The notes: generated by a model not told the origin, from the letters alone. A DNA stretch of 32,000 bases from Acinetobacter wanghuae (GCF_009557235.1 NZ_CP045650.1:450001-482000); one strand, 5' to 3'. Positions 10,154 through 16,348 are shown, counted from the first letter of the stretch. Made by a program: numbers and translations.

Positions 10154-11680
10154 TTATTGTGCAGCAGCGTCAACTACTGGAATTTTACCAATTTTCGCTT
10201 GCCAGATTTTTGGTGCAGTTGCGTGAATTGATGTACCGTTAACATCAACCGCAACCGATACAGGCATGTCTTTTACAACAAACTTGTAGATCGCTTCCAT
10301 ACCCAAGTCAGCAAATGCAACCACTTCAGCTTCACGGATTGCTTTTGATACTAAGTATGCAGCGCCACCAACAGCCATGAGGTAAGTCGCTTTATTGTCT
10401 TTGATGGCTTCAACAGCAGCAGGACCACGGTCTGCTTTACCAATCATACCGAACATGCCAGTCGCTTCAAGCACTTGACGCGTGAACTTGTCCATACGTG
10501 TTGCAGTCGTTGGACCTGCAGGACCGACAACTTCGTCACCCACTGGATCAACAGGACCAACGTAGTAGATGAACTTGCCTTTAAGATCGACAGGGAGTTC
10601 TTCGCCCTTATTCAACATATCGACCATACGTTTATGCGCAGCATCGCGACCGGTATAAATTGTACCGTTCAGAAGCAAAGTGTCACCTGGTTGCCAAGTG
10701 TTCATTTCTTCTTGAGTGATGTTATCGAGATCAACACGTTTAGATGATGATGAGTCCCAAGTCACTTCAGGGTAGTCAGATAAGCTTGGCGCAATGATAT
10801 TTGCAACGCCTGTACCATCTAATGTGAAGTGTGCGTGACGAGTCGCAGCACAGTTTGGAATCATACCAACTGGTTTGCCCGCAGCATGACATGGGTAATC
10901 TTTGATTTTGATATCAAGCACTGTGGTTAAACCACCAAGACCTTGTGCACCAATACCCAAAGCATTTACTTTTTCGAAGATTTCGATACGCAGTTCTTCA
11001 AGTTTGCTTTGTGGACCACGACGAAGCAATTCATCCATGTCCAATTCTTCCATCAATGCTTCTTTCGCAAGCATCATGGCTTTTTCAGCTGTACCACCAA
11101 TACCGATACCGAGCATACCAGGCGGACACCAGCCTGCACCCATTGTTGGTACAGTTTTTAATACCCAATCTACGATTGAATCAGATGGATTTAACATCGC
11201 AAGTTTAGATTTATTTTCTGAACCACCACCTTTTGCAGCAACTGTAATATCAACTTTGTTACCTGGAACAAGTTTGTGATAGATCACAGCAGGGGTGTTG
11301 TCTTTAGTGTTCTTACGACCAAATGCAGGATCAGCCAGTACAGATGCACGCAGAATATTTGAGTTTTCTAAGTAACCTTGACGCACACCTTCGTTAATCG
11401 CATCGTCTAAGCTCATCGTTAAATCGAATTTAACGTCCATGCCCACTTCAACGAATACGTTTACAATACCGGTATCTTGGCAAATTGGACGATGTCCTTC
11501 TGCACACATACGAGAGTTAATTAGAATTTGTGCGATCGCATCTTTTGCAGCTTTGTTTTCTTCACGATCGTAAGCACGGCTCATCGCTTGGATGAAATCC
11601 TGTGGGTGATAGTAAGAAATGAACTGAAGCGCATCTTTAACCGATGTGATCAAGTCATCTTGCTTGATAATAGTTGTCAT
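10154..11680 (-). CDS. fumA: Class I (Fe-S cluster) fumarate hydratase, single-chain form of about 500 aa
   Basis: 508-aa ORF starting MTTIIKQDDLITSVKDALQFISYYHPQDFIQAM. It contains ICQDTGIVNVF and GGGSENKS, and the C-terminal half resembles the fumarase/tartrate dehydratase beta domain. Confidence 0.92.
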   Translation of the reverse strand: MTTIIKQDDLITSVKDALQFISYYHPQDFIQAMSRAYDREENKAAKDAIAQILINSRMCAEGHRPICQDTGIVNVFVEVGMDVKFDLTMSLDDAINEGVRQGYLENSNILRASVLADPAFGRKNTKDNTPAVIYHKLVPGNKVDITVAAKGGGSENKSKLAMLNPSDSIVDWVLKTVPTMGAGWCPPGMLGIGIGGTAEKAMMLAKEALMEELDMDELLRRGPQSKLEELRIEIFEKVNALGIGAQGLGGLTTVLDIKIKDYPCHAAGKPVGMIPNCAATRHAHFTLDGTGVANIIAPSLSDYPEVTWDSSSSKRVDLDNITQEEMNTWQPGDTLLLNGTIYTGRDAAHKRMVDMLNKGEELPVDLKGKFIYYVGPVDPVGDEVVGPAGPTTATRMDKFTRQVLEATGMFGMIGKADRGPAAVEAIKDNKATYLMAVGGAAYLVSKAIREAEVVAFADLGMEAIYKFVVKDMPVSVAVDVNGTSIHATAPKIWQAKIGKIPVVDAAAQ

Positions 11681-11792: not shown

Positions 11793-11866
11793 CTGTCATA
11801 TTGATGATGAAAATGGTCATATATGACAATGAAAGTGTCATATAAGTTGTCATATTTCATGTCATA
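11793..11866 (+). promoter_or_regulatory. Phased array of five same-strand (C/T)GTCATA half-sites, one forming a 12-bp perfect palindrome
   Basis: GTCATA starts at 11795, 11816, 11837, 11849 and 11861, giving spacings of 21, 21, 12 and 12 bp. GTCATATATGAC (11816-11827) is a perfect palindrome. The core matches the Pho box repeat further downstream. Confidence 0.45.
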
Positions 11867-11942
11867 AACGATCAAAAATACATAATATTGTTGTAAGTAT
11901 TTGAATTTTATTTATATAGTGAATATTACAAGGCTTTTCATA

Positions 11943-11976
11943 TTGTCATATAACTGTCATATAACTTTCGCATAAT
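11943..11976 (+). promoter_or_regulatory. Pho box (PhoB-type direct repeats) plus -10 element
   Basis: TTGTCATATAACTGTCAT (11943-11960) matches CTGTCATAWAWCTGTCAY at 17 of 18 positions. Two perfect 11-bp units (TGTCATATAAC) are followed by two degenerate ones. CATAAT (11971-11976) sits exactly 10 bp after the box, and there is no -35 hexamer. Confidence 0.6.
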
Positions 11977-12004
11977 GCACATATCGAAACTAGAGGATGT
12001 TTTT

Positions 12005-12091
12005 ATGATTACAATCGTTGCTTCTGTTGTTGGTTTTTCTATGTATATCGCAGCAACTTGGTTCTACGGTCAGCAAGAAGATCAAGCATAA
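12005..12091 (+). CDS. Candidate 28-aa small hydrophobic (single-helix) protein
   Basis: GAGGA (11993-11997), a 7-nt spacer and ATG at 12005. The peptide is MITIVASVVGFSMYIAATWFYGQQEDQA. It is bracketed by the Pho-box promoter and a terminator that overlaps the stop codon. It is too short for the ORF track, and I cannot assess conservation here. Confidence 0.45.
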   Translation: MITIVASVVGFSMYIAATWFYGQQEDQA

Positions 12092-12111
12092 GGCTTTATC
12101 TTCTTTTTTTT
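12077..12111 (+). terminator. Rho-independent terminator of the micro-gene
   Basis: GAAGATcAAGC (12077-12087) pairs with GCTTtATCTTC (12093-12103) around an ATAAG loop, followed by T8 (12104-12111). The hairpin contains the TAA stop codon (12089-12091). Confidence 0.6.
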
Positions 12112-12140
12112 GCTTTTAATTTTATAAAAATAATATTCTT

Positions 12141-12273
12141 CTCAAATCTCAAATCTCAAATCTCAAATCTCAAATCTCAAATCTCAAATCTCAAATCTCA
12201 AATCTCAAATCTCAAATCTCAAATCTCAAATCTCAAATCTCAAATCTCAAATCTCAAATCTCAAATCTCAAAT
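12141..12273. repeat. Perfect heptanucleotide microsatellite, (CTCAAAT) x 19
   Basis: Counted directly: 133 bp with no interruptions. It lies between the terminators of two convergent units. Confidence 0.98.
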
Positions 12274-12373: not shown

Positions 12374-12401
12374 TAAAAAAAGCACTTAAAAGTGCTTTTT
12401 T
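12374..12401. terminator. Terminator of the cold-shock gene; bidirectional in form
   Basis: AAAAAAAGCACTTAAAAGTGCTTTTTT: stem AGCACT/AGTGCT with an A-run and a T-run on either side. Confidence 0.8.
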
Positions 12402-12418
12402 GAGATGCTTATTGCTGC

Positions 12419-12634
12419 TTAGATTGCAACGATATTTACAGCATTCGGGCCTTTTTGACCTTGAGCAACGCTGAATTCAACTTGTTGACCTTCAAGAAGC
12501 GTCTTAAAGCCTGAACTTGCGATTTCGCTAAAATGAGCAAAAACATCTGGACCTGATTCTTGTTGAATGAAACCAAAACCTTTAGTTTCGTTGAACCACT
12601 TTACAGTACCTTTAACAACAGCTGAGTTAGACAT
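12419..12634 (-). CDS. Cold-shock protein, CspA family
   Basis: 71-aa ORF with RNP1 (KGFGFI) and RNP2 (VFAHF) motifs. An AGGA SD lies 5 nt upstream. Confidence 0.95.
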
Positions 12635-12935: not shown

Positions 12936-15074
12936 TTAATCGCTTTGTTGTTCAGCTTGAATCGCGGTTAATGCAATGGTGAAGACAATATCATCGACCA
13001 ATGCACCACGAGACAAGTCATTCACGGGTTTATTTAAACCTTGTAACATCGGTCCAACACTGACGACATTGGCAGAGCGCTGTACCGCTTTATAGGTCGT
13101 ATTTCCGGTATTTAAATCAGGGAAAATAAAGACATTGGCACGACCAGCCACTTTTGAATCGGGTGCTTTTGAACGACCGACGCTTTCTACAGAGGCTGCA
13201 TCGTATTGTAATGGTCCATCAATGAGTAAATCAGGACGACGCTCTTTGGCAATACGGGTCGCTTCAGCCACTTTTTCAACATCAGCACCTGTGCCCGATG
13301 TACCTGTTGAATAAGAAATCATGGCAATACGTGGATCAATACCGAAGGCTTTGGCAGAGTCTGCAGACTGAATTGCAATTTCAGCCAGTTGTTCAGCATT
13401 AGGGTCTGGATTAATCGCGCAATCACCATAGACATAGACTTCATCGGGTAACAACATAAAGAATACCGATGATACCAATGAATAATCAGGTGCAGTTTTA
13501 ATGAGCTGGAATGCAGGACGAACGGTATTAGCGGTGGTATGTACGGCACCCGATACCAAGCCATCGACTTGATCCAATGCCAACATCATCGTGCCTAAAA
13601 CCACGCTATCTTGCAGTTGCTCACGCGCTTGCAACTCATTGATTTTGCCTTTACGTAGCTCGACCATTGAAGATACGTAAGTTTCACGAATTAAATCAGG
13701 ATCGATGATTTCTAGATCATTTGGAAGTTCAATGCCACGCGCTTTTGCAAGGTCAACCACCGCTTCAGGTTTAGCCAATAAAATACAATGCGCAATACCA
13801 CGCGATTGGCAGATAGCTGCCGCTTGAATGGTACGTGGTTCATCGCCTTCAGGCAGTACAATGCGTTTTTTAGCTGCAATCGATTTTTGTACCAACTCAT
13901 GACGGAAGGCAGAAGGGGATAAACGTGGTTGATAAGAGCCGTTTAATGTAGCTGTAAGCCAATCAGGATTGAGGTGACTTGATACAAAACGTGTCACTTG
14001 TTGCGCGCGTTCAGTATCATCGACTGGAATTTCATTGCTTAAATTGCTAAGTTTTTGTGCGGTTTCAAAGGTGTTTAATGTCGTGTGTAAAATCGGTAAG
14101 CCTTGCTTAATCGCACTTTGACAGAAGTTAAGTACACTGTTGTTCGGCTGGTGATTTTCAGTCAGCACCAAACCTGCAAGCGGAATACCATTACTGCTGG
14201 CTAAGCTACTTGCGAGTAAAACATCAATTCGATCTGACGCACTGATAATCAGTTCACCCGCAACAAATTTATGTAATTCGTGCTCAATATTGGCAGAAAT
14301 TAAACTGCTATGCTGAACACGGCGTTGACTCGCTTCGCCTTCATTAATCCAATGTGCTGAAATGTGTGCTGCCAAATCGCTCATGCGCGGTACGCTCAGT
14401 GTTTTACTAAACGGCACCAAACCAATAACAGGTAATTTTTCTGTACCAATATGTGCATGAATTTTTTGCAAGGCTTGAGTAAATTGCGCTGTTTCTGTGG
14501 TTAAGCGTAAATTCGGATCGAGTGTCACTGGAATTTGCGCAGATTCTTCAGATAAGCCTTTGGTACGCATAAACAATATGCCAGACAGACGAGTTGTATC
14601 CGCACCACCAAAATGACGAATTTGATTTTCAACTTTATCCGCACAGATTGCAGGTTGATTCAAATCTGCTTGGCTGACAATCACCACTTTTGCATCAAGG
14701 GCTTGTACAAGGCTTGCGTTTAAATCATCTACGAAACGATCATGCCCATTCGGCACTAAGCCTTCGACAATAATAAAATCATGATTTTTTGCGACTTCTC
14801 GATGTAAACGAACCGCTTCTTCTAACAGTTCATCTTGCTCGCCTAAACTCAGTTGTTGCATCACGGTACTATAGGCAATGGGTTCGACTGTTTGCTGATG
14901 TGACAAATGTCGATAGAGGGCAGTGGTTCGGTCTTCATCAGAAAATTGATCTTGTGAAAAAGGTTTCAAAAACCCGATATTCACGCCTTGGCATTCAAGG
15001 GCATAGATTAAACCTAAACATGCAGACGTTAAGCCAACGCCTTCACCAGTTGGAACCAATACTATTGTTTTCAT
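12936..15074 (-). CDS. pta: Phosphate acetyltransferase (long, three-domain form)
   Basis: 712-aa ORF starting MKTIVLVPTGEGVGLTS, with a C-terminal PTA catalytic domain (...YSTGTSG...FIFPDLNTGNTTYKAVQR). It lies immediately downstream of ackA. Confidence 0.95.
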   Translation of the reverse strand: MKTIVLVPTGEGVGLTSACLGLIYALECQGVNIGFLKPFSQDQFSDEDRTTALYRHLSHQQTVEPIAYSTVMQQLSLGEQDELLEEAVRLHREVAKNHDFIIVEGLVPNGHDRFVDDLNASLVQALDAKVVIVSQADLNQPAICADKVENQIRHFGGADTTRLSGILFMRTKGLSEESAQIPVTLDPNLRLTTETAQFTQALQKIHAHIGTEKLPVIGLVPFSKTLSVPRMSDLAAHISAHWINEGEASQRRVQHSSLISANIEHELHKFVAGELIISASDRIDVLLASSLASSNGIPLAGLVLTENHQPNNSVLNFCQSAIKQGLPILHTTLNTFETAQKLSNLSNEIPVDDTERAQQVTRFVSSHLNPDWLTATLNGSYQPRLSPSAFRHELVQKSIAAKKRIVLPEGDEPRTIQAAAICQSRGIAHCILLAKPEAVVDLAKARGIELPNDLEIIDPDLIRETYVSSMVELRKGKINELQAREQLQDSVVLGTMMLALDQVDGLVSGAVHTTANTVRPAFQLIKTAPDYSLVSSVFFMLLPDEVYVYGDCAINPDPNAEQLAEIAIQSADSAKAFGIDPRIAMISYSTGTSGTGADVEKVAEATRIAKERRPDLLIDGPLQYDAASVESVGRSKAPDSKVAGRANVFIFPDLNTGNTTYKAVQRSANVVSVGPMLQGLNKPVNDLSRGALVDDIVFTIALTAIQAEQQSD

Positions 15075-15127
15075 AAGGGATCAAGATCTTTAAAGTTTAA
15101 ATAAAGGTATAGCGACACTAAACTTGC

Positions 15128-16348
15128 TTACGCAAGTTCAGTTTTCAATTCAGACTTTTTTAGTAATTGCTGTCCCACATGAGCATCCACCACATGATGG
15201 ACTTCTTGTGCAATACGACCTTCTTCATCGGTTGGAACGACCCAGATTTGTGGACCTGTTCCTGCATCAATACGTCCTTCAGTGCCACGTTTTAAGGCAT
15301 TATTGGCATCTTTGTTTAAATTGAAACCGAAGTGTGGCAAGTAAGACATCGTTTTTTCACGAATATAAGCTGAGTTTTCACCAATACCACCTGTGAAGAA
15401 CAAACCATTTAATTCAGGCAGTCCGCAGCTTAATGCAGCCAAAGATTTTGCTAAACGGTAGCAGAAGACTTCAATCGCTAAAGTGGCATCTTCATTCCCT
15501 TTTTCAGAGGCATCGATCAAAGTACGCATATCATTAGATAAATCTGACAGCCCCAAGAGACCTGATTGGCTATTGAGCATTTTGTCAATTTTGTAAATAT
15601 CCCAACCGAGGTTTTTCGCAAGGAAGCTATGTAAGCTTGGGTCTACATCACCACTACGCGTACCCATGACTAAGCCTTCAAGCGGGGTTAAGCCCATAGA
15701 GGTATCGACGCTTTGACCATTCCAAATGGCACAGGTTGAGCTACCATTGCCCAAATGTGCAGTGAGCCAACCGCCCTGTTTAAAACTGCCTGCTAATGCA
15801 GAACCACGCTCAGAAACATAGGCATGACTGGTGCCATGGAAGCCATAACGACGTACCCCATGCTCAGTATATAAAAACTTTGGCACAGCGTAACGATAAG
15901 CATGCGCAGGCATGGTTTGATGGAAGGCAGTATCAAACACAGCCACTTGTGGTAGGTCAGGGAATAAACGTTGTGTCGCTTCAATGCCAATCAAATGGGC
16001 ATGGTTATGTAAAGGTGCTAAAGGAATTGCAGCACGAATATGTTCAATAATATCATCGTTAATGAGTTCAGCTTTGGTTAAGCTGCCGCCGTGAACTACA
16101 CGGTGACCAATCGCGTCAGGCTTATAATTCGCAAGGCGTTCTAAACCCACTTCAAGTGCTTTTTTATGATCGGCAAAGGGGATATGAATATCGACCGGTT
16201 CATTGCCAACGGTGACCCCTTTAATACGGGCATCTGCTGTCCCTAGGTTTTCAGCTAAACCATGAATACGGAAATCTTGTTGCTCTAAAAGTAGCGCAAA
16301 CTTGATTGAAGACGAACCACAATTAATTACCAATACTGATTTAGACAC
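15128..16348 (-). CDS. ackA: Acetate kinase
   Basis: 406-aa ORF containing [22 protein letters not shown] and FTGGIGENS. The start codon at 16348 is GTG. Confidence 0.95.

Follow-up and report, generated by a model that had tools for sequence, protein, structure and literature searches.

The stretch of DNA analyzed here (the window) comprises 32,000 nucleotides of the Acinetobacter wanghuae genome (GCF_009557235.1, NZ_CP045650.1:450001-482000; positions are counted from its first letter), and it contains, divergent from fumA, a unit of about 170 bp in which a Pho-box promoter, a ribosome-binding site, a 28-codon open reading frame (ORF) and a terminator follow one another. An initial annotation, made from the sequence alone, had described this unit as a self-contained membrane micro-gene and offered three functions for it: a phosphate-starvation-induced small membrane protein, a dual-function small RNA (sRNA) or a type I toxin-like peptide. 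The comparative evidence presented below suggests that it is probably a genuine small-protein gene of the Acinetobacter phosphate-starvation (Pho) regulon, restricted to part of that lineage. The self-contained arrangement is conserved across 57 related loci, drawn from 22 Acinetobacter species or genome bins and 28 metagenome contigs.

At all 57 loci the ORF is intact, with 28 codons at 49 of them and 26, 27 or 29 at the rest, and the differences in length are of whole codons only. Among 18 species, variable sites are distributed over codon positions 1, 2 and 3 as 8, 3 and 18, and the ratio of non-synonymous to synonymous divergence (pN/pS) is 0.19 in frame as compared to 1.1-1.6 in the other two sense frames. 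With 29 distinct sequences the reading frame has a ratio of 0.29, below that of each of the other five frames; an antisense frame comes second (0.49), and the other two sense frames stand at about 1 or more. Judged by these substitution patterns, the micro-ORF is evolving as a protein, with purifying selection acting on its amino-acid sequence, and both the frame conservation and the synonymous bias that the initial annotation had suggested looking for in relatives are present. The synonymous divergence (pS) of the micro-ORF is 0.385 and that of the adjacent fumA, in the same species pairs, is 0.392, an equality which argues against any added constraint on the RNA beyond the terminator stem.

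These rates bear directly on the possibility that the transcript is mainly a PhoB-induced regulatory sRNA, with the ORF incidental or the RNA serving a dual function. Such a molecule would fit the short transcript of about 129 nt with its own strong terminator, as well as the invariance of the nucleotides of codons 24-26, and codons 25-26 (GAA GAT), the terminator's 5' arm, show zero synonymous variation. However, synonymous sites diverge as they do in fumA and non-synonymous sites change 3-5 times more slowly, which points to selection at the protein level, and the terminator stem explains the invariant nucleotides. No Rfam family was found on the transcript, and no conserved single-stranded seed was seen outside the coding sequence in alignments and folds. 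An sRNA is therefore very unlikely to be the principal product. Since Y21, G22 and Q23 lie outside the stem and synonymous changes are seen in their codons, conservation of these three residues is at the protein level.

Most public gene calls of this ORF place its start at an ATG farther upstream (11975 in the window), for a product of 38 aa. This 38-codon alternative was rejected, as its start codon overlaps the -10 hexamer, which places it upstream of the predicted transcript start, and in-frame stops separate it from the conserved ATG in six species. Because of the stops that these species carry in the extension, the 28-codon ORF is taken to be the real one, and the public 38-aa calls are probably mis-started.

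The promoter of the micro-gene was described in the initial annotation as a Pho box agreeing with its consensus at 17 of 18 positions and built of two 11-bp-phased repeats plus two degenerate units, with CATAAT exactly 10 bp downstream and no -35 element, and every part of that description was borne out (Table 1). The box, TTGTCATATAACTGTCAT, is the sole site in the window with at most one mismatch from CTGTCATAWAWCTGTCAY, where shuffles of the 32 kb lead to an expectation of 0.01; with at most three mismatches there are 3 matches in the window compared to 0.22 expected. Tandem Repeats Finder detects a period of 11 bp here, with 2.1 perfect copies, or 3.8 copies at 77%, which fits two perfect units followed by two degenerate ones. 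No hexamer with more than 2/6 matches to TTGACA lies 16-18 bp upstream of CATAAT, and a sigma-70 scan called no full promoter with a -35 element at this position. The pattern TGTCAT-N5-TGTCAT-N10-NATAAT is present in 22 of the 22 genome loci and in 26 of the 28 metagenome loci, the other two of which carry a one-base variant (TGTAAT), and the ATAAT core of the -10 hexamer is invariant in 20/20 aligned sequences. The alignment shows the DNA between the Pho-box site and fumA to be otherwise diverged. Within the 378 kb of Acinetobacter DNA examined, an exact TGTCAY-N5-TGTCAY occurs only upstream of the micro-ORF. Acinetobacter olsB is preceded by an Escherichia coli-like Pho box, and the low-phosphate aminolipid response, which olsB supports, requires phoR (PMC11419095). 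From the near-consensus site with its canonical geometry, its very strong conservation and the literature precedents of olsB and yoaI, we infer that the micro-gene is under PhoB control.

Further upstream, additional PhoB-type half-sites are clustered 84-150 bp from the proximal Pho box. TGTCAT begins at 11794, 11836, 11848 and 11860, GGTCAT at 11815, and an inverted copy, ATGACA, occupies 11823-11828; seven of the 26 TGTCAT copies in the window fall within 167 bp, and five of these make up the extra cluster at 11794-11865. Over the 22 genome loci, extra half-sites average 3.1 per 260 bp against a background of 0.21, an enrichment of about 14-fold, and they recur at -87, -108, -129, -140, -151, -161 and -172 counted from the box, and from one half-site to the next the distance is mostly 21-22 bp, or about two 11-bp units. 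Species that do not have the micro-ORF also lack the array upstream of fumA. We take these half-sites to be part of the small-gene cassette, as putative auxiliary sites for PhoB. Because the array also lies some 110-190 bp from the start codon of the divergent fumA, PhoB might have an effect on fumA as well. A candidate second Pho promoter at 11848-11886 was rejected, its box being 15 bp from the -10 and hence on the wrong helical face; the site is not conserved.

The TGTCAT repeats might instead be bound by another regulator of the OmpR family, or the promoter might not be controlled by phosphate, in which case the gene would be real but part of a different regulon. The inversion of some copies, together with the 12-bp distance between certain half-sites, would suit this explanation. 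On the other side stand the 17/18 agreement with the PhoB consensus, the 11-bp phasing, the A/T spacers and the canonical 10 bp to a -10 hexamer that has no -35 partner, and the same layout is found at E. coli yoaI, a proven PhoB target. E. coli-like Pho boxes have moreover been reported in Acinetobacter, as at olsB. To our knowledge, no other response regulator recognizes TGTCAT direct repeats, and we consider a different regulator rather unlikely.

Downstream of the promoter, the Shine-Dalgarno sequence, its 7-nt spacer, the ATG and the 28 codons were all confirmed as initially annotated. The stem-loop with a T8 tract that had been proposed to enclose the stop codon was also recovered, with one correction: the hairpin spans 12075-12105 and so starts about 2 nt earlier than the 12077 given before, while the T8 at 12104-12111 and the position of the stop codon (TAA, 12089-12091) inside the loop stand. 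Folding gives this hairpin a ΔG of -13.5 kcal/mol (z = -2.6). A simple consensus terminator scan did not call the hairpin and T8, most likely because the stem is A/U-rich and has too few G-C pairs for the rule used by the scan. The hairpin belongs to the minimum-energy fold of 22 of 22 predicted transcripts, that of ANC 4558 being the weakest. Across these 22 species the predicted transcripts are 125-132 nt long with leaders of 19-26 nt, and their folds contain no conserved pairing that would mask the ribosome-binding site or the AUG.

Table 1 Features of the micro-gene unit and its flanks in the window
Feature	Position	Strand	Remarks
Upstream array of extra PhoB-type half-sites	11794..11865	+	Seen as TGTCAT clustering
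Proximal Pho box, two 11-bp direct repeats TGTCATATAAC TGTCATATAAC	11943..11965	+	Fills the -35 region
18-bp Pho box TTGTCATATAACTGTCAT	11943-11960	+	17/18 as compared to consensus CTGTCATAWAWCTGTCAY
-10 hexamer CATAAT	11971..11976	+	10 bp after second TGTCAT; without -35 hexamer
Predicted monocistronic transcript, ~129 nt	11983..12111	+	Start predicted 7 nt past the -10; end at T8
Shine-Dalgarno GAGGA	11993..11997	+	7-nt spacer, then ATG at 12005
28-codon ORF encoding MITIVASVVGFSMYIAATWFYGQQEDQA	12005..12091	+	One predicted transmembrane helix and acidic tail
Intrinsic terminator, arms AAGAAGAT / ATCTTCTT flanking an inner stem, then T8	12075..12111	+	From folding
Hypervariable tandem repeat (TCTCAAA)x19	12140..12273		Tandem Repeats Finder

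The overlap of ORF and terminator raises the possibility that the ORF is a leader peptide, such that a ribosome stopping in the terminator loop would keep the hairpin from forming and translation would control whether transcription continues into the repeat array and beyond it. The stop codon does lie in the loop and codons 24-26 do form the 5' arm, which a closely coupled ribosome would occlude, and the pyrBI attenuator is a precedent for translation-gated termination. There is, however, no conserved downstream gene to be gated: the next gene varies with the species and is usually convergent, being a cold-shock protein gene in the window and a YCII, AraC or DUF2171 gene elsewhere, and strong amino-acid selection on the helix would be unexpected in a simple leader. 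A leader peptide is thus a highly improbable explanation of the ORF.

The encoded peptide had been described as one hydrophobic helix with a polar, acidic tail, and this holds throughout the family. In 20 variants the 19-residue Kyte-Doolittle mean is 1.58-2.26, above the transmembrane threshold in every case, with 0 or 1 basic residue and a net charge of 0 to -2. Among 36 distinct variants, F11, I15, A16, T18, W19, Y21, G22, Q23 and E25 are invariant, and substitutions in the N-terminal half of the helix exchange one hydrophobic residue for another. From its hydrophobicity, the peptide is predicted to be located in the inner membrane.

A hydrophobic peptide of this size could also be a type I toxin resembling TisB (29 aa), that is, an inner-membrane depolarizer induced by phosphate starvation to slow growth, with or without an RNA antitoxin. 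The two share a small, very hydrophobic single helix and a promoter tightly regulated by stress, that of tisB being controlled by LexA. In addition, a minus-strand promoter-like site, TTGAGA-18-TATTAT at 12159..12130, could yield an antisense RNA; it is the best promoter-like match of the region (10/12), its TTGAGA is supplied by the downstream repeat unit, and it points antisense into the ORF. This site is not conserved, however, its spacing becoming 13 or 21 bp with the 8-bp repeat that most species have and its sequence differing in several species, and promoter-like sites are no commoner here than in shuffles (8 as compared to 7.3). Unlike the loci of TisB-type toxins, the micro-gene shows no conserved antisense RNA promoter in the species compared and has no long structured leader, the leader being merely 19-26 nt with no conserved structure hiding the ribosome-binding site. 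The tail is acidic rather than basic, and the gene occurs as a single copy in strictly conserved synteny and is subject to purifying selection. Pfam models cover several type I toxin families, and the peptide has no Pfam match. A toxin is therefore unlikely. Of the three functions first offered, the small membrane protein is favored, an sRNA alone is disfavored by the fumA-like synonymous divergence, and the toxin retains in its support only the small, hydrophobic character of the peptide.

The related loci were found by several routes. A protein search with a naturally padded 45-aa translation as query returned three unnamed 38-aa relatives whose contigs share the tig-clpP-clpX-fumA neighborhood; a scan of one genome per species gave 19 further Acinetobacter loci, and a fumA-anchored search added more divergent copies from A. 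johnsonii and A. variabilis. Looking up the surroundings of fumA in Alkanindiges returned no record. A metagenome scan contributed the 28 additional loci, with fumA divergently upstream in 26 of the 26 that have enough flank. The unit is divergent from fumA at every locus with a readable flank, and the distance between the start codons of fumA and the ORF is 310-361 bp at the 20 genome loci measured. Representation in public collections is sparse. Among 1.84 billion representative proteins searched exhaustively with HMMER, just seven were recovered, each an obvious member of the family; exact look-ups returned a few named records, which come from A. johnsonii and A. variabilis and are labeled "hypothetical" or "uncharacterized", and the peptide of the window, in its 28-aa or 38-aa form, is absent by exact look-up from a collection of 15 billion proteins. 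The 28-aa peptide has no match in Pfam, the 38-aa form has one chance match there (E = 0.16), and no NCBIfam family matches the peptide. In Rfam nothing reached the gathering thresholds; four sub-threshold matches lie in the intergenic region, all outside the transcript. A full-text literature search with peptide fragments retrieved no paper, and literature searches on Acinetobacter small proteins and phosphate transcriptomes turned up nothing about the locus. As judged from these searches, the micro-gene is lineage-restricted within the genus Acinetobacter and found only there.

The micro-gene lies in a gap of 738 bp bordered on one side by fumA (class I fumarate hydratase, minus strand, 10154-11680) and on the other by a cold-shock protein gene (minus strand, 12419-12634). 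Farther out, one flank holds tig, clpP, clpX and a DUF2846 gene, and the opposite flank pta and ackA. The earlier statement that no pst or pho genes occur in the window agrees with Pfam assignments for 17 of its large ORFs together with fumA, clpX and pta, which were identified from ORF translations and from the genes called in related loci. The related loci that were retrieved likewise contain no pst or pho gene. The genes for acetyl-phosphate metabolism, pta and ackA (12936-16348), are found about 1 kb away from the Pho-box gene. In E. coli, PhoB can be phosphorylated by acetyl phosphate. The adjacency is probably coincidental, since in other species other genes are inserted between.

Directly downstream of the terminator is a perfect (TCTCAAA)x19 repeat. 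At the equivalent position, 17 of the 22 genome loci have a repeat of 2-26 copies with the unit TCTTCAAA, TCTCAAA or CCTTCAAA, the first of these in most species, and the copy number ranges from 3 to 26 even among loci with an identical A. johnsonii-type peptide. At the repeat, several assemblies are interrupted or filled with N. It is not required for the gene, as five species that keep the gene lack it, nor is it an obvious promoter spacer, given that it lies between convergent 3' ends in most loci examined. Just past the 3' end of the cold-shock gene, a palindrome, AAAAAAAGCACTTAAAAGTGCTTTTTT, is present at 12376-12402 with a run of A and a run of T flanking it, and it resembles a bidirectional terminator at which the intergenic region ends. 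Two of the weak Rfam matches, STnc130 and STnc50 (E ~0.1), overlap this palindrome and are probably due to chance.

Taken as a Pho-regulon gene, the unit would operate as follows. When phosphate is scarce, a head-to-tail dimer of phosphorylated PhoB would occupy the two 11-bp repeats at 11944-11965, where it would take the place of the missing -35 element and bring sigma-70 RNA polymerase to the CATAAT -10; the phased half-sites 84-150 bp upstream probably give cooperative PhoB binding. As predicted from promoter geometry and folding, transcription would run from about 11983 to the hairpin and T8 at 12111, yielding a monocistronic mRNA about 129 nt long whose leader is short and unstructured. 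Its translation would produce a peptide that crosses the inner membrane once, in which residues 2-21 form the hydrophobic helix, W-x-Y makes an aromatic belt at the interface and G-Q-Q/K-E-D-Q-A is the acidic tail. By analogy with the actions of YoaI on EnvZ, MgtS on MgtA and PitA, and MgrB on PhoQ, the peptide most likely uses its helix and acidic tail to bind a larger membrane protein, which would be a transporter or a sensor kinase, and such binding would adjust the activity or stability of the partner during phosphate starvation.

Several observations weigh against this reading or narrow it. The spacing of some upstream half-sites, as mentioned, is 12 bp instead of 11 bp. The codons of E25 and D26 overlap the terminator stem, which confounds the conservation of these two residues. 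The Shine-Dalgarno sequence, while strong in the window, is weak in most orthologues, being TAGAGTGT or TAAG in most other species and AGGA in A. johnsonii and ANC 3832. Clustering of conserved positions on one face of the helix gave P = 0.08, so that a single conserved face was rejected as not significant and a specific packing interface is not demonstrated. Finally, the entire unit (array, Pho box, ORF, terminator and repeat) is absent beside fumA in A. baumannii, where pta directly abuts fumA, and in A. junii, A. marinus and A. nectaris, and it is thus not a core Pho function.

A more specific proposal is that the peptide is a PhoB-induced feedback modulator acting at the PhoR/PstCAB/PhoU complex or at a Pit-type carrier to tune phosphate sensing or transport, with the shared PhoB-site array also tying fumA expression to phosphate. 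This extension, drawn from analogy with MgrB acting on PhoQ and MgtS on PitA, is speculative and has perhaps a small chance of being right; were it so, a sensor kinase without a periplasmic sensing domain would receive, through the peptide, an input from within the membrane. Membership in the Pho regulon would itself provide a lineage-specific component for environmental Acinetobacter, including A. johnsonii, a classic polyphosphate accumulator, and the 170-bp unit would be easy to manipulate in asking how phosphate starvation remodels membrane functions. The combination of a neighboring gene's synonymous rate with stops in an alternative start also offers a reusable template for validating micro-genes from sequence.

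Among characterized small proteins, the E. coli protein YoaI (34 aa) is the closest functional analogue of the peptide, and not a detectable homologue. Read directly, the yoaI promoter has one Pho box, some 10 bp ahead of the -10, no -35 and a short leader, and it likewise serves a tiny ORF encoding one transmembrane helix and a short tail with a conserved C-terminal glutamate. YoaI is activated by PhoB, and it binds and stimulates EnvZ via the tail glutamate (PMC11429745). Membership in the YoaI family was nevertheless rejected, as no BLASTP alignment with the peptide was obtained at E <= 100; YoaI has an acidic N-terminal segment and spans Gammaproteobacteria, whereas the peptide begins with its helix and is found in Acinetobacter only.

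MgtS (YneM, E. coli, 31 aa) is of similar size and has a helix ending in aromatics and an acidic tip (…AAYFSHKWDD as compared to …AATWFYGQQEDQA), and it too is induced by a nutrient-sensing two-component system, although the regulator and signal differ (PhoP/PhoQP, Mg2+). MgtS acts by binding transporters, stabilizing MgtA and binding the phosphate symporter PitA (see the reference list of PMC12648545). Membership in the MgtS family was rejected, the hhalign probability of 23% over 16 columns not being significant. Other small proteins that are induced by or act on two-component systems feed back on membrane kinases, with MgrB and PhoR-binding DUF1127 proteins as examples (PMC12648545). While the concept of feedback on a sensor kinase is shared with MgrB, that protein has 47 aa and a periplasmic domain, and the peptide, which has no Pfam match, shows no homology to it; DUF1127 proteins are arginine-rich, not transmembrane and also without homology to the peptide. 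The micro-gene is thus well supported and almost entirely missed by annotation, in a class that is no longer surprising: its product is a new Acinetobacter-restricted family within a known kind, the small membrane proteins induced by two-component systems, rather than a new type of system.

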